From: a virus
UHGV virus genome: UHGV-0077154
DNA length: 13,459 nt
Reading direction: 5' to 3' (one strand)
Shown here: in pieces, positions 2,335 to 13,435 of the stretch
Layout: every line of letters starts with the position of its first letter
Numbering within the stretch: the first letter of the stretch is position 1
Position numbers and translations under genes: made by a program
Notes under the pieces: model-generated
The model's database searches: none
The model's input: only the letters and a program-made list of their open reading frames with translations
Told to the model about the DNA's origin: nothing

Positions 2335-3325
2335 TTCCACAACCTGCCCCGTAGGTGTCCCGGCTCTTTATCCTCCAAGTTTACATTCTCCTGTTGAAAA
2401 TATCCCCGGCTCTGTTGGTGATCTGCTAGACCGTCAGCCCAGGCCCTCGGTGAAAAGCGCTTTTCTTCGCCAAATATCGCTACGTTATGCCTTCAGCGAC
2501 ACGCCTCACTGCAACAAGCAGTGCAGTTACACAATGCTGCTTTGGGCTGAGGCAAGGGAGATAACTTGATGTTTTGAAGTGCCTCTGTTCACTAATTGTA
2601 CAACCATTTAACATATTGTATCTTATAAGTACTTGACTGGAATGGTCAGGTATTGCTTTTCGGAGCGTTGATGCGAAGCGGAGTACACAACAACGATTTG
2701 ATCAACAGAAGGAAAGCATTCGGGAGGATTTGAGGTGAGTTCTCTTGTTCAAGGATTTTGGATGAGTTTGTCCGGTCACCACACAATTTCAGGTTTCAGG
2801 CCTTTGAAGCTGCCAGCGCATCTAACACGATGAAAGAGCATTTTTCTCTTTATCAGCAGAAAAAGAGCTACTACGGCGACGTTACCACAACGGGGTGAAG
2901 AACTATCGTCACCTGGCGAAATTCTCCCGCCCTTGCAGGTCACGGATACGTACCTTTTCCCGCACCAGCGCAAGCCTTCTCACCAATAGCCCCGTATGCT
3001 CCACCAGAAGCGCTACAGCGCGTCATCTCCACACAATTGTAAACTACACACCCATAGCACAGCGCCCCGCTGAGAAGCTCTGACACGCCCAGAAATGGAT
3101 GGTTTTTCGTTGATTTTGCGAAGAAAATTAATTTTTTCGGTATGGAAGGGCGGATCGGTAAACTGGTTTGACACGCATTTGGTTGACATATTTAACGCAT
3201 CCAGCCCCTGCGCGGGTTCGTTGTGTATCCGATACCATAACGATCACCACACCACACAGGCGAGCCAGTGACAACAGACAGGATTTTCTAGCAATTAACC
3301 GCAATTAACAGGTATTAAAGCTCTA

Positions 3326-3697
3326 TTATTTCCCGCCGAAAATCCAACCGATGATGGCACCGATTATCGCAGAGCGGGTCTCACCTGCTGCTCCTTTGAG
3401 AACGTTAATAACTGCATCGCCTGCACCAGGTGCCTGCTGTTGAAGTAAATTCAAACCACGAGGTGTTAACTTGGCGGCGGTATCCATGTCGGTTGAAGAG
3501 ATTATCTCCGTGTAACCCATATCGCTGAGAGCCTGGAGTGTGTTGCAAAGCAGGTCAATCTGAGTTCTGTCTCCTCTGGGCTTCCAGCCGAAGTCTGAAA
3601 ATTCGAAAGAAGAGTAAGCCGGATAGTCCGCAAACAGTTTCACCAGGATTCCAGTTGCCATCTCGTTAAAGCTGTCTTTGCCTTGGACGAATTCCAT
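3326..3697 (-). CDS. 123-aa protein with a C-terminal hydrophobic Gly/Ile-rich anchor; transcribed divergently from the control region
   Basis: ATG at 3697 has an AGGA SD 6 nt upstream (minus-strand AAAAGGAAACATT-ATG). The composition looks protein-like. The C-terminus SAIIGAIIGWIFGGK looks like a tail anchor or glycine-zipper helix. Confidence 0.7.
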   Translation of the reverse strand: MEFVQGKDSFNEMATGILVKLFADYPAYSSFEFSDFGWKPRGDRTQIDLLCNTLQALSDMGYTEIISSTDMDTAAKLTPRGLNLLQQQAPGAGDAVINVLKGAAGETRSAIIGAIIGWIFGGK

Positions 3698-3820
3698 AAT
3701 GTTTCCTTTTGTTCACTGATTGAACGAGGTTACTTACTTACCGCTGGAAGTGCCAGCAAGAAGGGATGACGCTGTGCTGTTAATCACTAGGTGAGGGGGT
3801 GTCTTCTACCAGAGGGGAGG

Positions 3821-3915
3821 CCATTGGTAAAGAATCTTAACTAACGTTAGTAAAGATCCTTAACCAGCCATTAGTAAAGAATCTTAACTAACCATTGGTA
3901 AAGATACTTAACCGT
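3821..3915. repeat. Four tandem ~23-24 bp iterons (CCATTGGTAAAGAATCTTAACTAA-type)
   Basis: Copies start at 3821, 3845, 3868 and 3892: ccattggtaaagaatcttaactaa / cgttagtaaagatccttaaccag / ccattagtaaagaatcttaactaa / ccattggtaaagatacttaaccgt. They are contiguous with no spacers. Confidence 0.85.
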
Positions 3916-3917
3916 AC

Positions 3918-3959
3918 TATATCACTTACTAGATCATCTTTAGATCACTGCCTATATCA
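3918..3959. repeat. Four helically phased heptamers TATATCA / TAGATCA / TAGATCA / TATATCA
   Basis: Heptamers start at 3918, 3930, 3941 and 3953 (spacing 12, 11, 12 bp), immediately after the iterons. The two inner copies contain GATC. Confidence 0.6.
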
Positions 3960-4130
3960 GTAAAAACATTAAGGTCAAAGACAGATTGAACATGCGTTCA
4001 ATTGTTGGAGTTGTTAGGTGTTATGTAGACAGGCTTCGCCTGTTTACACTCTGTGTGGAAGACAAGCGCAAGCGCGTCAGTCCAATGTGGATCGAGCACG
4101 GCGCAGAGGAGCTTTAAACGCGACGTAACT

Positions 4131-4160
4131 CCCCCCTTGGAGGGGCGGCGCACCCCCCTC
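4131..4160. promoter_or_regulatory. GC-rich dyad with a lambda-cosN-like core (candidate cos/packaging site)
   Basis: GGGCGGCGCACC (4143-4154) compared with the lambda cohesive end GGGCGGCGACCT recalled from memory: the first 8 nt are identical and the rest aligns with a 1-nt indel. It is flanked by the inverted hexamers GAGGGG (4140-4145) and CCCCTC (4155-4160), and it is intergenic. An 8-mer match alone is near chance level. Confidence 0.3.
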
Positions 4161-4296
4161 AACCCTGCGCTCTAACAACATCTCTAGAGTCCTCTATCGC
4201 GTTCTGAGCGTCTTTCTCTTATTGTTGGTGACTTTGTACCGTTCCGCTTACAGCGTTGAATCTGAAGCGTCTGAGAGCGTTTTGTGATTACGGGGC

Positions 4297-4410
4297 TTGA
4301 CAAAGAAAATGTATGTGTATAAGGTTGCGGGGTATTGACACAAAACATTTATATCTCTTTATTCATTAAATGAGTTATCGGTTGACAAAGAAACTAATTT
4401 ACTATAAAAT
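4297..4410 (+). promoter_or_regulatory. Three tandem consensus -35 boxes/promoters upstream of the rightward operon
   Basis: TTGACA occurs at 4297-4302 (15-bp spacer, then TATAAG 4318-4323), at 4335-4340 (weak -10 TTTATT 4358-4363) and at 4382-4387 (17-bp spacer, then TAAAAT 4405-4410). The first and third share TTGACAAAGAAA. Confidence 0.55.
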
Positions 4411-4468
4411 ATATATTATCAAATGAGATGATTTTATGACTAAACAATAACTTAAATAGGAGAGATAC

Positions 4469-4897
4469 ATGGGGAAACCTGTTCTGTTCGATTTCTCGAG
4501 CGCCACTGCCTCAGAGATTGTCGCTGCAATCGATGCAAAAATTACCACAGCTCAAAATCTGCACGCCTTCCGCACTCGTATGGGTGGTGCCAAGAAAGCC
4601 GATAAGCTCTATCCAGCTACTCGCGAAGCACTGAACATCATTAAACGCCTGCGTCAGCAAGCGAAAGACGCAAAAATCATCCGGGATATTCTTAAACCGT
4701 ACTCAGCAGAGTTGGCAAAAGGCCGTGATGTTATGGAAATCATTGAACCAGTGCTGTCTGCCTGGCGTGTCTATTACGCCTCTCATGGCATTGGTTTGAT
4801 GAATGAGCAGATCCTCCTGTTGAAAATGATTGAGGCGGGCGGTGAACTCGAAGGTATTACCGGAAAACCCATTCCCGAACTGACCACAACCGAATAA
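4469..4897 (+). CDS. 142-aa helical protein of unknown function; first gene downstream of the triple promoter
   Basis: AGGAGA SD (4458-4463) lies 5 nt before the ATG. The composition is clean and protein-like. I recognise no motif. Confidence 0.8.
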   Translation: MGKPVLFDFSSATASEIVAAIDAKITTAQNLHAFRTRMGGAKKADKLYPATREALNIIKRLRQQAKDAKIIRDILKPYSAELAKGRDVMEIIEPVLSAWRVYYASHGIGLMNEQILLLKMIEAGGELEGITGKPIPELTTTE

Positions 4898-5078
4898 CCA
4901 TTCTCTTCTTTACGGTGCGAAGCACTTTACCAGAGGTAAACACCTCCGGTGCTATTAGCTTTACTCTGTTGGCAGCAACGCCACCAAACGAAATCGCCGT
5001 AAACACGGCTCCTTACCCCTGATCAATTCCATGATCGCAGGGGCGCACCCGCATATCTAACGCACAGGAGAGATGATT

Positions 5079-5264
5079 GTGAAACTGTCACTAGACGATG
5101 AAACATATGCAATTTTACGCGAAGAATCTGACCGTTTGGGGATGCCAGTTCCGAGGATGATCCGGAACATGTGCCAGAACCTGGCGAAACACATTCAGAA
5201 ACGCAATGAACAACCACTGACGAACCCACAGGGAGAACAACATGACAGAGACAGTAGAAGCTAA
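5079..5264 (+). CDS. Ribbon-helix-helix (CopG/Arc-type) DNA-binding protein, about 61 aa
   Basis: KLSLDDETYAILREESDRLGMPVPRMIRNMCQNLAKHI fits beta-strand/helix/helix RHH architecture. AGGAG (5066-5070) is 8 nt from GTG 5079 but only 2 nt from the ATG 5073 used by the ORF track. The 3' end overlaps the next gene by 23 nt. Confidence 0.65.
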   Translation: MKLSLDDETYAILREESDRLGMPVPRMIRNMCQNLAKHIQKRNEQPLTNPQGEQHDRDSRS

Positions 5265-5886
5265 TCTGCCAGACGAACAGGACGGCACTTTTGATCGCAA
5301 TTATACCGAGATTAAGCGCTTGAAAGTGTTGGTTGCCGACGATGGAACTAAAATTCCGTTCAGCGCGAACATGAAAGTAGTCTACGCCTACCTCTACACC
5401 TTCCAGACAAATAAAGAGCGGCGGAACTACCCTGAGCCAATTTATCCTAATATGGAAATAATCGCGTGGGAAAATGGCATTACTAAACCCACGGCGCAAA
5501 AGGCTGTGGATGATTTGATGCGGGCGGGGGTGTTGATTAAGGACCAAATTCAGGTTGGGAGCGGGTTTAAGTCCAACAATTACGTTGTGTTGAAACCCTC
5601 GAAAGTGGTGGCGCGTGGCGTCACTCCACCGCATCCAAATGCTTCTAAATATTCAACTGCCGAGGAGAGCGGTAAGAATGAACAAAAACGTGCTGTGGTG
5701 GAACCTGCCGCGCCTGTTGCTGGAAAACCAGACGGCATACCTGTTGTGGATATTCCTGTCGATGCTGATGTACCTGCCGATGATGATGCGGTGATCGGAG
5801 ACTTTAGTGATCCTTACCTTGATGCTGAAGTAAAAGAATGGCAGAAACAAAAACATAGTGGAGGATTGAATTGTGTGAACACGTAA
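5242..5886 (+). CDS. Winged-helix DNA-binding protein with an acidic/proline-rich C-terminal tail, 214 aa (possible origin-binding/initiator or regulator)
   Basis: GGGAG SD (5231-5235). The core VVYAYLYTF...MEIIAWENGITKPTAQKAVDDLMRAGVLIK looks like a wHTH of the plasmid/phage Rep-type helix-turn-helix family. The C-terminus PVVDIPVDADVPADDDAVIGDF looks disordered. Confidence 0.75.
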   Translation: MTETVEANLPDEQDGTFDRNYTEIKRLKVLVADDGTKIPFSANMKVVYAYLYTFQTNKERRNYPEPIYPNMEIIAWENGITKPTAQKAVDDLMRAGVLIKDQIQVGSGFKSNNYVVLKPSKVVARGVTPPHPNASKYSTAEESGKNEQKRAVVEPAAPVAGKPDGIPVVDIPVDADVPADDDAVIGDFSDPYLDAEVKEWQKQKHSGGLNCVNT

Positions 5887-6347
5887 GCGTTGAACTGACC
5901 GCAGATGAAGAACAAAAGCTATCTCGCCTTTTCTCCGTCCTGGAGAAACCGACATATAAATCCCGATCCAAACCTTCCGATCCGGAAACACAACGCAAAG
6001 CCCGTTTATTGCTTAATCGTGGATTTTCACCGCATATTGTCGCTAATACCCTAGATCTGCCGTTCGCTGAAGTCTGGCGGCTCGCACGTCAAAAACAAGC
6101 GGTGACCTGGGCGATGATGACACCGACAGCCCGGACAGAATTTGTCCGTGAAATGTGGTCACATCGGATGCACCCGGAACAGATCCGCAAGCGTTGCGAT
6201 GGTCTGTCATACGTCAGTCTGAGATATTACCTGCATAACGCCGGGATCACTGACGCTGAAATGTTGGGTTACTACCCAGACGTGTTCGTGAATATCTGCA
6301 AGCTGCCGACAGTGAAGAAGAAGCGCACTAAGTGTAAGGCCCGTTAG
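5871..6347 (+). CDS. 158-aa protein with two HTH-like segments and a basic C-terminus (regulator or packaging-specificity factor?)
   Basis: TTG start has a GGAGGA SD (5860-5865) 5 nt upstream and overlaps the previous gene by 16 nt. Candidate HTH segments are GFSPHIVANTLDLPFAEVWRLARQ and MHPEQIRKRCDGLSYVSLRYYLHNAG. The tail is KKKRTKCKAR. Confidence 0.7.
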   Translation: MCEHVSVELTADEEQKLSRLFSVLEKPTYKSRSKPSDPETQRKARLLLNRGFSPHIVANTLDLPFAEVWRLARQKQAVTWAMMTPTARTEFVREMWSHRMHPEQIRKRCDGLSYVSLRYYLHNAGITDAEMLGYYPDVFVNICKLPTVKKKRTKCKAR

Positions 6348-6414
6348 GGTGAACGTTAACGTTCATCACTTTGTGACCGGATCGCCAATCCAAATAATCC
6401 CACATCGGGAGCCA

Positions 6415-6531
6415 ATGAACTTTGAAGCAATCCTTTCTTACCTGCCCGTTGTCTGGCTGGCGTATCGCTGCGTCCGTGATGGGCTGATCCTACTTTGGAG
6501 ACACCATAAAAATGACATTGAACAGCATTAA
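6415..6531 (+). CDS. Possible 38-aa single-TM peptide (uncertain)
   Basis: Internal ATG 6415 follows GGGAG (6407-6411). The product MNFEAILSYLPVVWLAYRCVRDGLILLW is hydrophobic. It fills the gap between two coupled genes and overlaps the next start by 20 nt. The track's longer GTG-6349 version has no SD. Confidence 0.3.
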   Translation: MNFEAILSYLPVVWLAYRCVRDGLILLWRHHKNDIEQH

Positions 6532-6892
6532 AAATGCTCTGTTTGCCGCTATGCACGGCATGACACCGGAGGAATACGAACTCCAAAAGGCGCGGGACAA
6601 TCTCAAGAGCGTCACCGATAACTTTCTGGATCAACATCCGGAGTTGCTCAAATCAGCCTCGTCTGACACCCCCACGGATAAACGGGGCGAAGCCCTCTCG
6701 CCAATGCGAGACACCTTTGGTGCTGAACAACGGATTAAAAAATCTTTGGGCGCTGATAGCCGTCCGGCGGTAAGTCATACCGCTGATCACATCGATCCTG
6801 AAATGCTGGCGAAAGCTAAAGCAGCGGCTGCTGCTCTCGCAAAATCTGACCCTGATCGTTACGGCAATATCATCAAGCAGCAGGGGGTGTGA
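6512..6892 (+). CDS. 126-aa acidic/Ala-rich protein of unknown function, translationally coupled to the 715-aa gene
   Basis: GGAGA (6497-6501) lies upstream of the ATG. The stop TGA (6890-6892) overlaps the ATG at 6892 (TGATG). The sequence looks largely helical or disordered. Confidence 0.7.
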   Translation: MTLNSIKNALFAAMHGMTPEEYELQKARDNLKSVTDNFLDQHPELLKSASSDTPTDKRGEALSPMRDTFGAEQRIKKSLGADSRPAVSHTADHIDPEMLAKAKAAAAALAKSDPDRYGNIIKQQGV

Positions 6893-9036
6893 TGGCGAAT
6901 GGCAATATCATAGTGACTGAAACCGTAAACGAGGTGACATGGTCTGTCGATCGGACAGCCTTCGGTCGCGCCCTGAAAGCTGTTAAATCCATCAAGGCTG
7001 CTCATGAGAAACCAGCTAAGGCGCTTGAGAAGGCCCAGAAGCGGACCGTCCAGAGTGAAGGCAAAGCCGCACTAGCAGCAGCGAAAGCCCAGACAGCGAA
7101 GCTACGCCAGGCTGAACAATTGTCTAAACAGCAACAGAAACAAGCTCAGATACAAGCCAAAATGGAGCGGGACGCAGTAGCCCACGCCAATAAAATGACC
7201 TCATTACAGGCGCGTCAGTTATCCCAACAGGAACAGGCAGCACGTCAGAATGCCCGTTTAGCAGCAATATCTGAAAAGGTGAGACAGGCGAGTCGCTCCC
7301 GCGCGATGACCTACACCCCAAACATGGGCGGTCAACATTACGATCCTGGTCTTGTTTCCCGTCAGACTGACGCAATGAACCGTGGTCACGGCGCTGTTGC
7401 TGCCGACATCGCAGCCACCAAAAAGGCGATGGCCCTGGAGGAGAAGCGCCAGCGTGAGAAAGAGGCAGGACTTAAGCGTGAGGTGACTTATTACAACAGT
7501 TTGCGCCGTAGCGCTTTGACTCTGGCAAACGTGAACGGCGCTGACGTTGCAACCCGTTATAAAGCGATCAGTGCAGCAAAAGAGGCACTCAAAGCCCAGA
7601 AAGAAGAGCGTTATACGGTCGAAGAGACCCGTTTCGAAATGGCCCGTATCACTACAGAATTACGCAAGCAGGCTCGTCTGCAACAACGTATTACCCGTGA
7701 GCAGAAAGCCGCAGGTGTTCGTGCTGGTCGTGTACGCACAGAAAGCCGTGGTGGAAGTGTAGGTCTGGCTGCCGCTGGTGTTGTTGGTGGTGCGGCGTTA
7801 GTAGGTAGTATGGGCGTTTCTCGTGTTGGTCAGACCCTTCAGGGAAGCCTTGAGCGTTCTCGCGATGTGAAAAAACTCCAGCAGTATGGGATCAGCAACC
7901 TTGAGTTCGCAGCACTTCAGGATCTATCAATGAGCCGTGTTGGTTACTCACTGAGTGCTGACAAGCTGGCTGACCTCAACAAGGACACAACCGAAAAGGC
8001 CGGGGAATTGCTGAATACTGGCTCTTTCAAACGTAACAAGAAAACTGGACAGGTGAATTTCAGCGGCGGTGGTGAGTTTGCAGATATCATCAATAACGTA
8101 CTGACCTCCACCAACGGCAACCAGAAGGTAGCCCAAAAGGTGATCGGGGAACTGCAAAAACTGGATTTTCCAACATTTATCACTTATCTAAAGCAATTAC
8201 AGAAAACTTTCGGCTGGACTGATCGACAGGTGCGACACCTGGCCGAGGCTGTGAATGATGGTTCGGTCTTCCTCGAAGTGTTCAATGATGAGGGGCAGGG
8301 ACTTATCCAGCGTATGAATCAACTCGCTTCTGAAGGATGGACCCTATCTGATGCACAGCAGGCCAACCTTGATAAGCTGGCAGCTTTGGGTGCTGAGTAC
8401 AGTCGCGTGCAGATGTCGCTTGCTGACCACTTCAGCGCCAGCTTCGTGCAGGGTCTGGGAGAATATGCAGCTAATACTGACACTCTACGTCAGAAGATGA
8501 CTGGACTGATCCCAATTTCCGATGCTCTCGGCGTTGCCCTTGGTGAGCTAACCACCAACATTCTCTCCTTCGCTGGTCGAGTCGGTGAAGAACTCAAGAA
8601 AGGCGCGACACTGCCGGATGCAGTCTACAACACCGTAGTGGATGACTCTGCAAATAGCACCGCCGATTGGATTAAGGAAAAGACCGGATTTGATCCACGC
8701 AGCATCGGTCAGACGCTCAAACAGATTTACCCGTGGCTGGATAGTTTCGCTCCGAGCAATATCGGCTCAGGCACGGCGTATAACGATCCAGCGCTAGCGT
8801 TGAATGTTCCTGGTTTCAACTCAATACAACCCCAGCAACCAACGTTTACGATTCCGACAATTGACAGCATGACGCAGCGACAGCCGATTCCTGTTGCGGT
8901 CACTGGCGAAGCTGAGATTAAACTCTCACCGCTTGATATTAACGTGAATGACGGCGCTATTAACGGTTTGATTGATACAAAACTGAGGAGCTATGAGCAG
9001 GCACAGAACAACATGATCCTTGGTATTGCTCAATGA
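6892..9036 (+). CDS. 715-aa coiled-coil + glycine-zipper TM + tape-measure-like domain protein
   Basis: Roughly residues 30-290 are Q/A/K/R-rich heptad-like sequence. GGSVGLAAAGVVGGAALVGSMGV is a Gly-zipper hydrophobic segment. The next ~200 aa (LADLNKDTTEKAGELLNTGS...GGGEFADIINNV...LKQLQKTFGWTDRQVRHLAEAVNDGSVFLEVFNDEGQGL...LSDAQQANLDKL) resemble the conserved core of phage tail tape-measure proteins as I recall it. Confidence 0.8.
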   Translation: MANGNIIVTETVNEVTWSVDRTAFGRALKAVKSIKAAHEKPAKALEKAQKRTVQSEGKAALAAAKAQTAKLRQAEQLSKQQQKQAQIQAKMERDAVAHANKMTSLQARQLSQQEQAARQNARLAAISEKVRQASRSRAMTYTPNMGGQHYDPGLVSRQTDAMNRGHGAVAADIAATKKAMALEEKRQREKEAGLKREVTYYNSLRRSALTLANVNGADVATRYKAISAAKEALKAQKEERYTVEETRFEMARITTELRKQARLQQRITREQKAAGVRAGRVRTESRGGSVGLAAAGVVGGAALVGSMGVSRVGQTLQGSLERSRDVKKLQQYGISNLEFAALQDLSMSRVGYSLSADKLADLNKDTTEKAGELLNTGSFKRNKKTGQVNFSGGGEFADIINNVLTSTNGNQKVAQKVIGELQKLDFPTFITYLKQLQKTFGWTDRQVRHLAEAVNDGSVFLEVFNDEGQGLIQRMNQLASEGWTLSDAQQANLDKLAALGAEYSRVQMSLADHFSASFVQGLGEYAANTDTLRQKMTGLIPISDALGVALGELTTNILSFAGRVGEELKKGATLPDAVYNTVVDDSANSTADWIKEKTGFDPRSIGQTLKQIYPWLDSFAPSNIGSGTAYNDPALALNVPGFNSIQPQQPTFTIPTIDSMTQRQPIPVAVTGEAEIKLSPLDINVNDGAINGLIDTKLRSYEQAQNNMILGIAQ

Positions 9037-9132
9037 TGAAACAGAGGGTGGCGAATTCGTCGCCCCTATCTCAACACCACAATGCGTATGTATCAAATTT
9101 AGCGACAAATCAAATACTTTTCGTGAAATTTG

Positions 9133-9161
9133 TTGTAAATGATAATCATTCGTGTTAAAAT
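9133..9161 (+). promoter_or_regulatory. Candidate sigma70 promoter with extended -10, heading the capsid-gene leader
   Basis: -35 TTGTAA (9133-9138), 17-bp spacer, TGTTAAAAT (9153-9161; TGn + TAAAAT), inside an AT-rich stretch just after the 715-aa gene. Confidence 0.45.
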
Positions 9162-9511
9162 AATATACAAGGTGAATTACAACAGCCAAATGTTTTTCCC
9201 TTCTCCTTAGGAATCAAAGTGCGCTTTTCCCAGAGCGCCTTTTCTCATACAGCCAATATCCGCACCCTCTCACGGTAAGGTTAGGCCATTGCCGCTGGCT
9301 GTATCAGAAAAGCATCGCAGAGCGATTAGCCAGCAGGCTAACCCGTTCTCGTGTGTAGAAAATTTCCACCTAAGGTGGATTTGCCAAAAGTCCTGTCCTC
9401 CTCGGCGGGCTGTCAGCCGGACACTAACGGCATCAGGTGGCAACGTTTTTGGGTCTCCTTACCCATTCTTTGGAGCGTTGCCGCCTCCTCATTCCTACCA
9501 GTGAAATTCAC

Positions 9512-9542
9512 ACCGGACGACTCTCCGTCCGGTCACTTTTTT
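9512..9542 (+). terminator. Intrinsic terminator candidate t1 in the capsid leader
   Basis: Stem ACCGGACG (9512-9519) pairs with CGTCCGGT (9526-9533), loop ACTCTC. CAC follows, then a T6 run (9537-9542). Confidence 0.5.
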
Positions 9543-9557
9543 CATCGGAACAATTCT

Positions 9558-9610
9558 AAAGGCTGGCCCTGTCGCCGTTTACGGCTCAAGCAGGCGCTGG
9601 CCTTTTGTTT
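9558..9610 (+). terminator. Intrinsic terminator candidate t2 (long GC-rich compound hairpin + U-run) just before the capsid-gene RBS
   Basis: 9561-9571 pairs with 9591-9602 (one bulge, two G-U pairs), with an inner hairpin GCCG-TTTA-CGGC (9574-9585). AAA (9558-9560) can pair with the following T-run, and TTTTGTTT lies at 9603-9610. Confidence 0.55.
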
Positions 9611-9645
9611 ACATAGCTATGTGAAATTTAACGGGAGTTAATTAT

Positions 9646-9987
9646 ATGAAAATGGGAAGCCTTGAGCGCTCTTACAATGACGTGATCGCGTATGCAGCCG
9701 ATCCGAATTTTGACCGCAAGACTATTACTGTCGATCTAGCTGTAGAAGTCCAGCCGGGTAGTTGCATTACCAGCACTGGAGCTGCTTATGTCTCTGGTGA
9801 TGACTGCCTGCTGGTCCTGAGCCACCACAGGGCCGAAGATGCTGCTCATATCATCGTTGCTGATCGCGGGATTTACATCAAACAAGACACCATCACCGCT
9901 GTTATGGGCGCTACCGCTGGCGCTAATGCTATTGCCGCACTCACCAAAACGGGCGCAATCCGTACTAGCGCACCGGACGCAGAATAA
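9646..9987 (+). CDS. Head decoration protein, lambda gpD-like, 113 aa
   Basis: GGGAG SD (9633-9637) is 8 nt from the ATG. Size, position immediately upstream of the gpE-like gene, and the pattern ...GDDCLLVLSHHRAEDAAHIIVADRGIYIKQDTI...TGAIRTS parallel lambda gpD (...[31 protein letters not shown]...GTAISIV, from memory). Confidence 0.6.
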   Translation: MKMGSLERSYNDVIAYAADPNFDRKTITVDLAVEVQPGSCITSTGAAYVSGDDCLLVLSHHRAEDAAHIIVADRGIYIKQDTITAVMGATAGANAIAALTKTGAIRTSAPDAE

Positions 9988-10005
9988 TAATAAGGAGAAG
10001 ACAAC

Positions 10006-11040
10006 ATGGGACTATCAACCAATTTCAGCTACGCGGATTACACCAACACCTTTGTGAACATGGATGCAAAGAACACTTTGCTGTCCACGCTTAATGTTTT
10101 CAGTGATCGTCAGACTTCTGCAAGTCCGAAGGTGAGCCTCGATATCATTGATGAAGTCGCTCAGAAGGTGGCAAGCTCTGTTAATCGTTACGGTTCAGAG
10201 TGGTCAACCATTCCTAAGCGTAGCGCTAGCAATCACCTGATTGAAGCTCCACTTTATGCTTTTCAAGACCGGATTACAGCGGCAGACGTGCAACCATATC
10301 GCAAACCAGGCTCCGACCTGCAAATGTCTGTAATGGATGCGGTCACTTCTTCTGCTGTCGCAATGCACGATAAGTACATGCGTACTAAAGAGAAAATTTT
10401 CGCTGACGCACTCTTCCGAAATACTGTCGAAGCGACCTACACCCAGCAGCCGATCATTTCCTGGGAAGATGAATTTGGATACCAACAGGCAACCGGAACG
10501 ATCAAAACCAGCGTTAGCTCTGGTGACCCACTTCGCAGCCTCGATGATGCAGTAACCGCTGCTAAAGTGCGCATGGGGGGCCTGGCTGGTCAGCTTGATG
10601 GATTTATCCTGTTTGCAGGTAGCAATGTTTATCGCGGCATTAAGTATCACCCTGATGTTCGTCAGAATGTTCAGTTCGGTGTGCTTGATCGGGATGTTCT
10701 GTTTAATAAAGAAGTGCTTCCGGCATTCTCAACATTCATCATTGAAAATGTTCGAGTGGTGGAGGTCACGGATCAGGCACTTTACGGAATTGGTCCGGAT
10801 GAATCCTTCCTGGTTCCACGTTTCAGCCGCCCACTGTCCTCTGATATTGCTCTACCTTTCGGTTATGTAGCAACGGCTACCAGCCGCAATCTTGATCTGG
10901 CATTTGCTGATCCGGTTGATTTCCGTATCTGGAGCGTACAGGACAAGTTTAAGAACGTGGAGCTATTCGCGGAAAGCTCAATCTTGCCTGTGGTGTACCG
11001 TCCGGATTTCGTTACAAAACTGACGAACGACGCAGCGTAA
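10006..11040 (+). CDS. Major capsid protein, lambda gpE family-like, 344 aa
   Basis: AAGGAGAA SD. The length is close to lambda gpE (341 aa). It sits directly after a D-like gene. The C-terminal ...ESSILPVVYRPDFVTKL resembles gpE ...SAPLMLLADPDEFVSVQL (from memory). Confidence 0.75.
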   Translation: MGLSTNFSYADYTNTFVNMDAKNTLLSTLNVFSDRQTSASPKVSLDIIDEVAQKVASSVNRYGSEWSTIPKRSASNHLIEAPLYAFQDRITAADVQPYRKPGSDLQMSVMDAVTSSAVAMHDKYMRTKEKIFADALFRNTVEATYTQQPIISWEDEFGYQQATGTIKTSVSSGDPLRSLDDAVTAAKVRMGGLAGQLDGFILFAGSNVYRGIKYHPDVRQNVQFGVLDRDVLFNKEVLPAFSTFIIENVRVVEVTDQALYGIGPDESFLVPRFSRPLSSDIALPFGYVATATSRNLDLAFADPVDFRIWSVQDKFKNVELFAESSILPVVYRPDFVTKLTNDAA

Positions 11041-11121
11041 GACAGCGGATTTTGGGGCTGACTATTTGGCCCCACCGTGAAGAATGGCCTGAAAAGGCGA
11101 GGCAAAGAAGAGGTGATTACT

Positions 11122-11325
11122 ATGAAAATTCAATTTCAGACTAACAACGGCTTCCCGTTGCTGACAGTTGCAGACGAGCGCGTTTTAGATTTTCTGAACG
11201 TTAGCGCAGTGTGTCGGTTCCTGAAGGTTCCGCGTTCCTCGTTCATGATGGACGTTGAGCAATACGGGCTTGAAAAGGCAATCAGTGAAGCCCTGCTGAA
11301 GTTAAGAAAGAATAAAAATTGTTAA
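11122..11325 (+). CDS. 67-aa HTH protein (AlpA/excisionase-like DNA-binding protein?)
   Basis: ATG 11122 follows GAGGTG (11110-11115). LNVSAVCRFLKVPRSSFMMDVEQYG resembles the MerR-type/excisionase HTH pattern. The upstream GTG-11077 extension in the track lacks an SD. Confidence 0.55.
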   Translation: MKIQFQTNNGFPLLTVADERVLDFLNVSAVCRFLKVPRSSFMMDVEQYGLEKAISEALLKLRKNKNC

Positions 11326-11386
11326 TAATCAATCTGTTGGTATTTGTTGTCAAAAGAATCATTGTGTTTGTTTTTCGCGCATTTAC

Positions 11387-11415
11387 TTGACACTATGATG
11401 CAGATTGCGTAGGCT
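11387..11415 (+). promoter_or_regulatory. Candidate promoter of the two-gene cassette
   Basis: TTGACA (11387-11392), 17-bp spacer, TAGGCT (11410-11415). Confidence 0.4.
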
Positions 11416-11509
11416 GAACATAAAATAATTGACTATTCTATATTCAAACCGGACTTCAACTTGAGAATGCTTCGTTCCTACATCTCCCTTCAAGGGGTAG
11501 GAGGATTAT

Positions 11510-11719
11510 ATGAACTTTGATATGCGTACAAACCAAAATTGTGCATCTTTTTTTAACCCAGCAACCAAGGCGTTTGTCGTCGTCGATTCGTTTGACAACT
11601 ACGAGTTCGATGTTCGTGCTGGTACTTTATCACGCACTGAATTTGTAGGCACAATCACAGCTTCGAACGATGAAGAGTTGAACAAGAAATTAGCTGAGAT
11701 CACGGCTGCTCATATATGA
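11510..11719 (+). CDS. 69-aa protein, first gene of an overlapping pair (unknown; antitoxin-like position)
   Basis: Strong AGGAGG SD (11499-11504) lies 5 nt before the ATG. The stop overlaps the next start (ATGA at 11716-11719). The gene is AT-rich. Confidence 0.7.
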   Translation: MNFDMRTNQNCASFFNPATKAFVVVDSFDNYEFDVRAGTLSRTEFVGTITASNDEELNKKLAEITAAHI

Positions 11720-12090
11720 TAACTCAACAGCAAATTGATGATTTAGTTGCAGATATTAACGATATCTTAGAAGAAGATAGAGCTAGACTGAAGATGTCAT
11801 TTCATTTTGCTGTTGATAGACTCAATGATCAGCGTAACAAACCTCCAATCACGCTAGATGAATTGAGAGTGATTTTTACAAATTTCATTGAACAACACTT
11901 GCAGACCATTTTAGGCAAAGATGAGGGGTTCTCCTTCACTATTAAGTGCCAGAAATCAGGTATTGCTATACCTTGCGCCATAGAGCATGAACTTGAGATT
12001 GGTGCAACGTGGGTAGTACAGCAAGTGATCACCATCATGCGGAATCCGAACTTTAACCCATACCATGGTGATGTCATCTTCGAAATCTAA
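11716..12090 (+). CDS. 124-aa protein, second gene of the overlapping pair (unknown; toxin/effector-like position)
   Basis: Translationally coupled by the ATGA overlap and followed directly by a strong terminator. I recognise no motif. Confidence 0.7.
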   Translation: MITQQQIDDLVADINDILEEDRARLKMSFHFAVDRLNDQRNKPPITLDELRVIFTNFIEQHLQTILGKDEGFSFTIKCQKSGIAIPCAIEHELEIGATWVVQQVITIMRNPNFNPYHGDVIFEI

Positions 12091-12092
12091 GT

Positions 12093-12118
12093 AAAAAGGC
12101 GCAATAGCGCCTTTTTTT
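12093..12118. terminator. Bidirectional intrinsic terminator shared by the cassette and int
   Basis: AAAAA-GGCGC-AATA-GCGCC-TTTTTTT: a 5-bp GC stem (12098-12102 / 12107-12111) flanked by an A5 run and a T7 run. The int stop codon (12117-12119) lies in the T-run. Confidence 0.8.
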
Positions 12119-13313
12119 ACAAATCCGGATAACACGCCAACTCGACATACTCCGATAGTTCCTTCATCCCTGGCCCTTTGCTGTAGGTTCTGAATGCTTC
12201 GGTTTTCGCTTTTTGTTCGGTATGTCCAGTGATGGCTCCGATCCGTTGTTCTGGCACCCCTGCACGGTCTAAGCAGGTGATGAACATTCCCCGTAAGCTG
12301 TGAAAACATTGCCGATCTGTAGCGGTTGGCAATGTGCTGTCACGTAGCCGGGTAAACTTTTGGCTGTACCACGGACCCCGCTTACCATCCTTCCGAATGA
12401 TGTTATTAGACTGAGCCAGAAGATATTCACCGCTGTTATTTGCCAGATGCTTATCAACAATCCCCATCAGCAGCGAGTGGATCGGAACATACCGCACCCC
12501 GGCTACAGTCTTGGACTTGCTGACAAAGAAACATCTGACACCCTCCAACATTACAATTTCATCCCGCTTGATGCTGGCGATCTCATCAAGTCGCATTCCT
12601 GAATACAGCCCAATCAGTATGACATCGCGTAGAACGTCATCCGCTTCTCTGACAAGTGTTTGCAATTGTTCAGGTTCAAACGGCTGATAACTTTCTATCG
12701 TGCGACGTGCTTCGAGGTTATGACCGTGAAACGGGTTACTGTCGGGGATTGCGTCATATCGACGTTTGGCGAACTCGTACAGACTCCCTAAAGAGGTTAG
12801 CCAGTTTTGCACGGTCTGCGGTGCTGCCTTTTTCTGTTGGCCTTCAATGAAGTCTGTAACCGTTCTGCGTCCTATCTTGTTCAGACTAATATCAACTTTA
12901 CCGATACTCTGGAGAAATACTTCCACCGCTCGCGCGGATTTGCTGAGTGTGGAAAATGCCCGACGTTCACTATAAACCGTCATGTATTCATCACGGATGA
13001 CTGCCAACGTTGGGATAGGGGAGACTGCTACAGGCGTACTCTTGGCCTGTTTGATTGTGGTGTGGAGTGTGGTGATCGCATTCTGGATGCGAATGTCTTC
13101 CCGATCAGGATTCAACAGGGCTTTCAGATTGTTGAACTCAATCAACATGTGATTTCTGAAGTGACGAGCCTTAAGGATGTCTTTTGTCCCGGTGGATTTT
13201 CGCCAGGCTCGTTTGTTGTCAAACAGGTGACGCATGTACGCAGGTACAAAGACCTGAAAGATCCATACGCCCGAATGACTTTGAAAAAGATACTGATTGT
13301 TCTTGATAGACAT
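12117..13313 (-). CDS. int: Tyrosine recombinase / phage-type integrase, 398 aa
   Basis: Catalytic signature visible: ...YSGMRLDEI (Arg), HSLRGMF (His-x-x-Arg), ITGHTE (His), FRTYSKG (Tyr). It sits next to attR with its 5' end facing the tRNA-derived repeat. Confidence 0.95.
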   Translation of the reverse strand: MSIKNNQYLFQSHSGVWIFQVFVPAYMRHLFDNKRAWRKSTGTKDILKARHFRNHMLIEFNNLKALLNPDREDIRIQNAITTLHTTIKQAKSTPVAVSPIPTLAVIRDEYMTVYSERRAFSTLSKSARAVEVFLQSIGKVDISLNKIGRRTVTDFIEGQQKKAAPQTVQNWLTSLGSLYEFAKRRYDAIPDSNPFHGHNLEARRTIESYQPFEPEQLQTLVREADDVLRDVILIGLYSGMRLDEIASIKRDEIVMLEGVRCFFVSKSKTVAGVRYVPIHSLLMGIVDKHLANNSGEYLLAQSNNIIRKDGKRGPWYSQKFTRLRDSTLPTATDRQCFHSLRGMFITCLDRAGVPEQRIGAITGHTEQKAKTEAFRTYSKGPGMKELSEYVELACYPDL

Positions 13314-13375: not shown

Positions 13376-13435
13376 AACGAGAGCTTCCCAAGCTCTATAC
13401 GAGGGTTCGATTCCCTTCGCCCGCTCCAGTCTCCT
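13376..13435. repeat. attR copy of the direct repeat: displaced 3' fragment of tRNA-Gly (13376-13428) plus 7 nt; not a functional tRNA
   Basis: Identical to 2-61. The sequence upstream (..GGGATGGAGT) diverges from the tRNA body (..AATGGTAG), so the acceptor 5' strand and D-arm are missing. Confidence 0.9.

Follow-up and report, generated by a model that had tools for sequence, protein, structure and literature searches.

An integrated island with capsid genes

The window, i.e., the whole stretch of 13,459 nucleotides that was analyzed, is an integrated element of ~13.4 kb, flanked by a 60-nt direct repeat (2–61 and 13376–13435) corresponding to the 3′ end portion of a tRNA-Gly gene. A tyrosine integrase is encoded on the minus strand at 12117–13313. 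Relatives of the island are found at other tRNA genes (e.g., tRNA-Thr in the Escherichia coli island L001), and their integrases are ~40% identical. The region 6512–11040 encodes a 715-aa tape-measure-like protein, whose gene is preceded by a 126-aa gene, and a lambda-E-type major capsid protein (10006–11040), whose gene is preceded by a 113-aa gene; relatives match Phage_phiTE_211 and TMP_3 here. A DUF4145 protein and several further proteins with no family match are also encoded. No portal, protease, or terminase was recognized in the island, and no ORF matched a loader, helicase, or primase family. The capsid module has been swapped between relatives, with 33% identity in L018 and L039.

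Relatives were found at tRNA-Thr in 27 of 5426 complete E. coli genomes, and also occur in Enterobacter, Klebsiella, Citrobacter, Pseudenterobacter, Cronobacter, and Raoultella. Neither a megablast search with positions 2400–12100 nor a tblastn search with the 214-aa protein described below returned a match in phage and plasmid collections. The island family appears to be undescribed, and it may represent a satellite-like family of its own. The many contigs of ~13 kb that carry homologues of the 214-aa protein were considered as possible free circles. The 26-nt terminal overlap of one of them, L018, is the tRNA att repeat; assembly breaks at att explain these contigs, which therefore give no evidence of episomes.

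Four dyad-bearing units in a non-coding interval

An array of four units lies at 3821–3915 (no strand assigned). The first-pass annotation had described four head-to-tail units starting at 3821, 3845, 3868, and 3892, and these positions are exact. Read from the sequence, the units are CCATTGGTAAAGAATCTTAACTAA (3821–3844), CGTTAGTAAAGATCCTTAACCAG (3845–3867), CCATTAGTAAAGAATCTTAACTAA (3868–3891), and CCATTGGTAAAGATACTTAACCGT (3892–3915), with unit 3 also being the unit consensus. A repeat search gave unit spacings of 23, 24, and 24 across the four copies. TRF reported 3820–3913 as 4.0 copies of period 24 (74% matches, score 104), and the same array as 2.0 copies of period 47 (89% matches, score 153), meaning that the array resembles a duplicated two-unit block. 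The core TTAGTAAAGANNCTTAAC occurs four times in 13.5 kb with ≤1 mismatch, each time within the array. The only other matches with ≤3 mismatches are on the reverse strand inside units 1 and 3, because the units have dyad symmetry. The self-offset match statistic for the array is 44, as compared to 33.6 ± 1.4 (maximum 39) for 300 dinucleotide shuffles, none of which reproduced the array.

Each unit contains the dyad GTAAAG-N4/5-CTTAAC. In units 1 and 3, the dyad extends to TTAGTAAAGA-A-TCTTAACTAA, with 8–9 of 10 arm positions paired; in units 2 and 4, 6 of 10 arm positions are palindromic. Searches of IMG/VR with the exact core pattern returned single matches at chance level and no arrays, and an Rfam search of the whole window (E up to 1) found nothing in 3700–4470. 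One unrelated phage-like metagenome contig (JGI10211J34971_10009677; L038) shares the core (GTAAAGAAACTTAAC), which it carries at positions 1–260 in 23-bp units repeated perfectly in tandem at least four times. An AT-rich tract comes after the units, and they stand directly upstream of two genes: a 374-aa ORF, wHTH-like at its N-terminus, and a DnaG/DnaB primase-helicase gene. This contig is an independent example of the origin layout described below.

The array sits in a non-coding interval of 770 bp, with the start codon of the leftward 123-aa gene 124 bp to one side and the first rightward gene 554 bp to the other. The first-pass annotation had called this interval a divergent control region. 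The array does lie between the 123-aa gene and the rightward operon, but the link to a promoter was overstated. The only good rightward promoter match, a sigma-70-like TTGACA-17-TAAAAT that fits 11 of 12 positions, is ~470 bp downstream of the array, on the plus strand at 4382–4410, so the array does not overlap the rightward promoter. Indeed, no promoter-like site at the scan threshold overlaps the array. The TTGACA boxes are kept in relatives, and the operon that this promoter would serve includes the gene for the 214-aa protein.

An AT-rich tract and a palindrome follow the array

The array is followed directly by a tract of 70% AT (3916–3970, plus strand). Within it, four TAKATCA motifs start at 3918, 3930, 3941, and 3953 (spacings of 12, 11, and 12), all on one strand. 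These are the only TAKATCA motifs on either strand of the window, and two of the four contain GATC. TRF detected a tandem repeat at 3915–3949 in the same tract. Judged by these sequence features, the tract with its TAKATCA/GATC motifs resembles a DNA-unwinding element, and we propose it as the unwinding region. DNA stability in the window is lowest around ~4385–4440, in the promoter region, and not in the AT-rich tract beside the array.

Beyond the tract are a conserved box, AAGGTCAAAGACAG (3971–3984), and, directly after it, the palindrome ATTGAAC-ATGC-GTTCAAT (3985–4002), both unstranded. Folded as single-stranded DNA, the box and palindrome (3971–4002) give −6.1 kcal/mol, with z = −2.3. RNAalifold predicted no consensus pairs for this region; because the palindromes are out of alignment register, no covariation statistic is claimed for them.

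A search for the DnaA box TTWTNCACA with ≤1 mismatch found none in 3700–4000, the nearest being at 4054–4062 and 4314–4322, and the total number of DnaA boxes in the window is at chance level. A scan with the IHF consensus found no site near the array. Cumulative GC skew has its minimum at ~3300–3600; since gene strand switches at the same place, we set it aside as evidence. The DNA from 4003 to 4290, between the palindrome and the operon promoter, is conserved and non-coding. It contains a GC hairpin (4024–4048) followed by CTCTGTGTGG at 4049–4058, a CTGTGTGG motif. This module of hairpin plus CTGTGTGG motif is present in one to three copies in relatives, with three in L003, and has no Rfam match.

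Relatives keep the layout with different unit sequences

We gathered 12 further loci using homologues of the 214-aa protein and pattern searches; a scan with the 142-aa protein, limited to one genome per species, yielded only two loci. All loci have a common layout, with a dyad-bearing array, then an AT-rich tract, then a conserved box and a palindrome. Conservation of the array in related elements had been suggested as a check in the first-pass annotation; the layout is kept in at least 12 Enterobacteriaceae islands, with unit sequences that differ by class. Arrays consist of three or four units of 21–24 bp, with the exception of L015 and L016, which have two units of ~44 bp. The AT-rich tract is 48–78 bp long, with 63–81% AT in nine of nine independent relatives, as compared to 43–59% in the flanks, and often contains short repeats with GATC. 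It is followed by the conserved box AAGGTCAARGRCAG. The position of the palindrome is kept but its sequence varies (GTGAAC/GTTCAC, GAATGAC/GTCATTC, GATGAC/GTCATC, or AGAGAGAG/CTCTCTCT).

The unit sequences fall into at least eight classes. Class A comprises the window, L004–L007, L018, and L039, all of which have an identical array. Graded variants of class A define class A1 (L008) and class A2 (L010, the graded variant, and L011). The remaining classes are B (L002), C (L003 and L012), D (L001 and L041), E (L014 and L040), and F (L015 and L016).

Some arrays are adjoined by a single unit of another class. In the window, one class C unit, GGTGTCTTCTACCAGAGGGGAG (3798–3819, unstranded), i.e., the array unit of L003 and L012, adjoins the array on its left. 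Similarly, L002 has one class-A-like unit (5078–5104) to the left of its class B array, and L015 has a degenerate class-C-like unit (~2590–2612) immediately to the left of its array. These off-class units could be relics of array replacement or sites of cross-recognition.

Array class tracks one domain of one protein

The main evidence comes from comparing islands, first the window with the E. coli island L001. DNA homology between these two (85–94% identity) is broken at only two patches, in both of which L001 has unrelated sequence. The first patch consists of the array and the AT-rich tract (3764–3962, unstranded; blastn alignments stop at 3763 and restart at 3963). The second patch (5024–5860) comprises the genes for a 63-aa RHH protein and the 214-aa protein. 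The L001 array (10463–10541 in L001) is three copies of TCATCGGTAACGGTTAC, and L001 encodes a different RHH protein and a 266-aa DUF6945 protein.

Two swapped genes therefore accompany the swapped array, and the other loci separate them. Islands with the identical class A array (the window, L004–L007, and L018) have N-terminal domains of the 214-aa protein (Rep) that are 79–83% identical, whereas their RHH proteins are only 34–38% identical. Conversely, the window RHH protein is 83–90% identical to those of L002 and L003, which have unrelated arrays (classes B and C). The relationship between array and Rep N-domain is also graded. In L008, the N-domain is 77% identical and the array, CATTAGTAAAGGTTCTTAAC, has a near-identical unit with a changed spacer; in L010, the N-domain is 63% identical and the array, AAGAAACTTAAACAACGTAGTAA, is recognizably related; at ≤42% identity, the arrays are unrelated. 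Across 10 loci, array similarity correlates with similarity of the Rep N-terminus (Mantel r = 0.84, p = 0.0001), as compared to r = −0.01 for the Rep C-terminus, r = 0.01 for the RHH protein, and r = 0.13 for the 142-aa protein. Two loci that were looked up after this rule had been set agreed with it. L040, with an N-domain like that of L014 and a tail like that of L001, has a class E array, and L041, with an N-domain like that of L001 and a tail like that of the window, has a class D array. On these sequence comparisons, array class tracks the N-terminal winged-helix domain of the 214-aa protein only, and cognate recognition of the array by this domain is well supported.

These comparisons bear directly on a second proposal of the first-pass annotation, operators for the RHH/HTH regulators, taken here as the RHH protein (5073–5264), the 158-aa HTH-like protein, or the 123-aa protein. 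The RHH gene adjoins the initiator gene and is co-swapped with it between the window and L001, and RHH proteins frequently bind tandem repeats; yet RHH identity and array class vary independently in both directions, as described above. For the 158-, 123-, and 142-aa proteins, the window and L001 have near-identical versions (95% for the 158-aa protein, 98–99% for the 123- and 142-aa proteins) with unrelated arrays. The full element L018, which has the same array as the window, has an integrase that is 42% identical and a capsid protein that is 33% identical, and has no homologue of the 158-aa protein, meaning that none of these three is linked to the array. We therefore reject operators for the RHH, 158-aa, or 123-aa protein as highly improbable. 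A partition (centromere) site was also considered and rejected, since genes of the ParA/ParM type are absent from the island and array and RHH protein do not co-vary. L003 has two different RHH genes in tandem (4930–5288), one like that of the window and the other like those of L004 and L007, which fits recombination of RHH modules separately from the origin/initiator module.

A putative initiator of the winged-helix type

The gene for the 214-aa putative initiator (5242–5886, plus strand) is part of the rightward operon, which it shares with the capsid genes. AlphaFold, using an alignment of 87 sequences, predicts the N-terminal domain (residues ~19–135, 5296–5646), the putative specificity determinant, with confidence. 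The predicted fold consists of a helix-strand-strand extension, a wHTH whose beta wing is long, and a helix at the C-terminal end of the domain. The remaining residues, 137–214, are predicted to form a disordered, acidic, proline-rich tail. This C-terminal part is mosaic across the family: there are at least three types of tail, and the type is independent of both array class and N-domain. The tails (5647–5886 in the window, and those of L007, L012, L014, L015, L001, L040, and L041) stand behind a conserved linker, EESGKNEQKR...PAAPVAGKPDG.PVVD.PVD.

Similarity searches point toward replication proteins without assigning a family. Weak PHROG matches are to "replication initiation protein" (8e-6), "replication initiation O-like" (5e-4 and 1e-3), and "DnaD-like helicase loader" (4e-3), and the matches of the L001 counterpart are similar. 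Fold neighbors in BFVD include a DUF6945 protein, a "Replication protein", and a "RepA-like replication initiator". Foldseek against the PDB found pTZ2162 RepA at E ~0.02, a moderate fold likeness, and MarR-type regulators fit the winged-helix fold about as closely as initiators do. A sequence profile searched against the PDB gave only weak wHTH matches, the best being 4ro3 at E = 0.009. Within the family, Pfam assigns HTH_36 to 53 of 87 members and DUF6945 to 12 of 87; none of the 87 matches Phage_rep_O, RepA_N, or Rep_3 at 0.01, and the window protein has no match to RepA_N (PF06970) at E up to 1. An hhalign comparison of profile A1 with lambda O was not significant (E = 0.15, probability 0.4%). 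Thus, the 214-aa protein weakly resembles phage replication initiators and, in its fold, the N-domain of DnaD and RepA_N proteins, and it fits no named initiator family.

These matches also weigh on the possibility that the array is a packaging site, with pac- or cosB-like repeats, and that the 214-aa protein is a small-terminase-like specificity factor. A (w)HTH domain at the N-terminus and binding to repeated sites are features of small terminases, the island has no recognizable terminase gene although it has capsid genes, and swapping of specificity would suit packaging as well. Nonetheless, the 214-aa protein has no terminase match in Pfam, PHROGs, or NCBIfam, its matches being to replication initiators, and a one-sided AT-rich tract with GATC motifs is a feature of origins. 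A role in packaging seems improbable to us.

A candidate replication origin

Our preferred reading is that the array constitutes the iterons of a lambda-like replication origin of the island, bound by the 214-aa initiator. We put the probability of this whole mechanism at roughly 0.65; our confidence that the 214-aa protein is the binding partner of the array, which comes from sequence covariation, is higher. In the proposed mechanism, switching on of the rightward operon would lead to production of the 214-aa protein. Dimers of its winged-helix N-domain would then bind the four dyad-bearing units at 3821–3915, and the resulting nucleoprotein complex would destabilize the adjacent AT-rich tract at 3916–3970. 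Finally, the disordered, acidic C-terminal tail would recruit the helicase and replisome of the host or of a helper phage; we look to the host or helper because the island has no recognizable helicase, primase, or loader.

The first-pass annotation had suggested iterons of the lambda-O or Rep type that the winged-helix protein at 5242–5886 could bind. Covariation with the N-domain and the origin-like architecture bear this out as far as the pairing and the layout are concerned. From these we infer physical binding, strand opening, replisome recruitment, and an outcome in replication itself rather than in control of transcription. Several considerations favor an origin. First, the order of iterons, AT-rich tract, and palindrome, together with the number, symmetry, and spacing of the units, is as in ori-lambda. 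Second, an island that excises requires a replicon, and the element has no other candidate for an initiator or origin. Third, the initiator gene and the capsid genes belong to one rightward operon, which fits a function in the lytic phase and not that of a maintenance repressor. Against the origin reading stand the generic fold of the protein, its weak PHROG matches, its lack of a Pfam match to an initiator family and of significant similarity to lambda O, the lack of DnaA and IHF sites nearby, the lack of a recognizable helicase, primase, or loader in the island, the lower stability of the promoter region than of the AT-rich tract, and the distance of 1.3 kb between array and initiator gene, which is unlike lambda and PICIs.

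The same pairing of array and N-domain could instead reflect an operator set through which the 214-aa protein acts as a repressor or activator, e.g., of the 123-aa gene or of a non-coding transcript. Covariation speaks to cognate binding only and not to the effect of that binding, the fold is equally near to MarR/ArsR regulators, and the leftward gene begins 124 bp downstream of the array. However, no promoter-like site lies over the array at the scan threshold, and L008, L010, L012, and L014 keep the array while having no 123-aa gene. Moreover, an AT-rich tract and a palindrome always follow the array, the annotated neighbors of the protein in sequence and fold are replication proteins, and a regulatory role would leave the island with no candidate replicon. 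We consider such an operator unlikely.

Comparison with known origins

If the array is an origin, the closest functional analogue appears to be the RepA-ori pair of PLE, a satellite in Vibrio cholerae. PLE has a helicase-less RepA_N initiator and iterons that are semi-palindromic direct repeats in a non-coding region (PMC7145576, PMC8263062), and its initiator N-domain changes in step with the origin, the C-domain being independent (PMC8263062). In both systems, semi-palindromic direct-repeat iterons occupy non-coding DNA at a distance from the initiator gene. Both initiators combine an N-terminal domain for DNA binding (putative in the island), which co-varies with the array or origin, with a distinct, independent C-terminal domain, and include no helicase or primase; and satellites that are otherwise alike have repeatedly exchanged replicon modules. 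The island differs in having four units of 23–24 bp rather than three of ~30 bp, and at least eight specificity classes rather than two. Its initiator does not belong to RepA_N by sequence; host clade, integrase type (tyrosine in the island), and gene content also differ.

In architecture, the array is similar to ori-lambda, which consists of four imperfect inverted-repeat iterons of 18–19 bp that start 20–24 bp apart (at 39034, 39054, 39078, and 39101 in lambda), followed by a 38-bp AT-rich region (PMC3349717, PMC7466680). Both have four imperfect inverted-repeat iterons with starts 20–24 bp, or about two helical turns, apart, then a one-sided AT-rich tract (~40–55 bp), then a palindrome (PMC3349717, PMC7466680), and both initiators combine N-terminal specificity with a separate C-terminal part. 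However, ori-lambda is inside the O gene, whereas the array here is intergenic and 1.3 kb upstream of 5242–5886; the island has no P-like loader gene and no PF04492 match, and its units are 23–24 bp rather than 18–19 bp.

The origins of PICIs/SaPIs have two iteron sets that flank an AT-rich region and lie directly 3′ of pri-rep, and their Rep is a helicase or primase fusion (PMC6092414). Shared with these elements are an island-encoded cognate pair of initiator and origin, iterons with an AT-rich melting region, and the lifestyle of an integrated, phage-dependent element. By contrast, the island studied here has a small winged-helix initiator and one iteron set, to the left of the AT-rich tract and upstream of the operon. 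A second iteron set was not found, there being no further core matches in the window at ≤3 mismatches.

Iteron plasmids with Rep_3 initiators (RepE, pi, TrfA, and P1 RepA) similarly have tandem iterons of ~19–24 bp beside an AT-rich DUE. Short DUE repeats that contain GATC are reminiscent of P1 oriR and oriC. The island differs from these plasmids in that its initiator has a single wHTH domain and no Rep_3 match, its iterons are dyad-symmetric, and no DnaA box is beside the array. The rep promoter showed no autoregulatory inverted repeat.

Implications

The analysis proposes a concrete function for a repeat array and for a "hypothetical" protein of the DUF6945/HTH_36 type, both of which are widespread in islands of Enterobacter, Klebsiella, Citrobacter, and E. 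coli. The candidate minimal replicon consists of ~3760–4010 together with 5242–5886. The natural specificity series, with at least eight iteron classes and matching N-domains, suits studies of DNA recognition by winged-helix proteins and of replicon-module exchange. The kind of element is a familiar one; it is the island family that appears to be new, with the extent of origin-module swapping, and the off-class units as possible relics of it, as its most interesting features.

A broader reading, which we offer tentatively and consider doubtful as a whole, joins these elements. In it, the islands would be an undescribed satellite-like family of the Enterobacteriaceae that carries capsid genes, in which origin and N-domain form a freely exchangeable specificity cassette (at least eight classes among islands that are nearly identical elsewhere), leaving single units of other classes beside the arrays and diversified by conflict, and in which the helicase-less initiator would need its interchangeable tails to hijack a host or helper replisome. 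The conflict could be with origin-directed nucleases of helper phages, comparable to ICP1 Odn, which acts against PLE; alternatively, incompatibility between co-resident islands could be the driver. If module swapping does reflect conflict with helper phages, the model of an origin arms race between PLE and ICP1 would extend to enterobacteria.

Other regions of the island

The window has two stretches with no ORF of at least 80 aa, at 2341–3325 (~1 kb) and 9037–9645 (~0.6 kb). For the corresponding DNA of L001, RefSeq lists no CDS, although the first stretch is ~90% conserved. An Rfam search of the whole window with E up to 1 returned only tRNA pieces at the ends and a sub-threshold match to STnc40, a Salmonella sRNA, at 12060–12117, just downstream of the integrase gene. 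With 29 bits against a gathering threshold of 45 (E = 0.12), this match is probably due to chance. Finally, the region 622–2101, beside the att site, encodes the DUF4145 protein and a 272-aa membrane-anchored protein and has a low GC content (34–36%). Other relatives have different cargo in the same slot (a resolvase, GmrSD_N, or a tRNA_anti-like protein), and this region looks like a variable accessory slot, possibly for defense.
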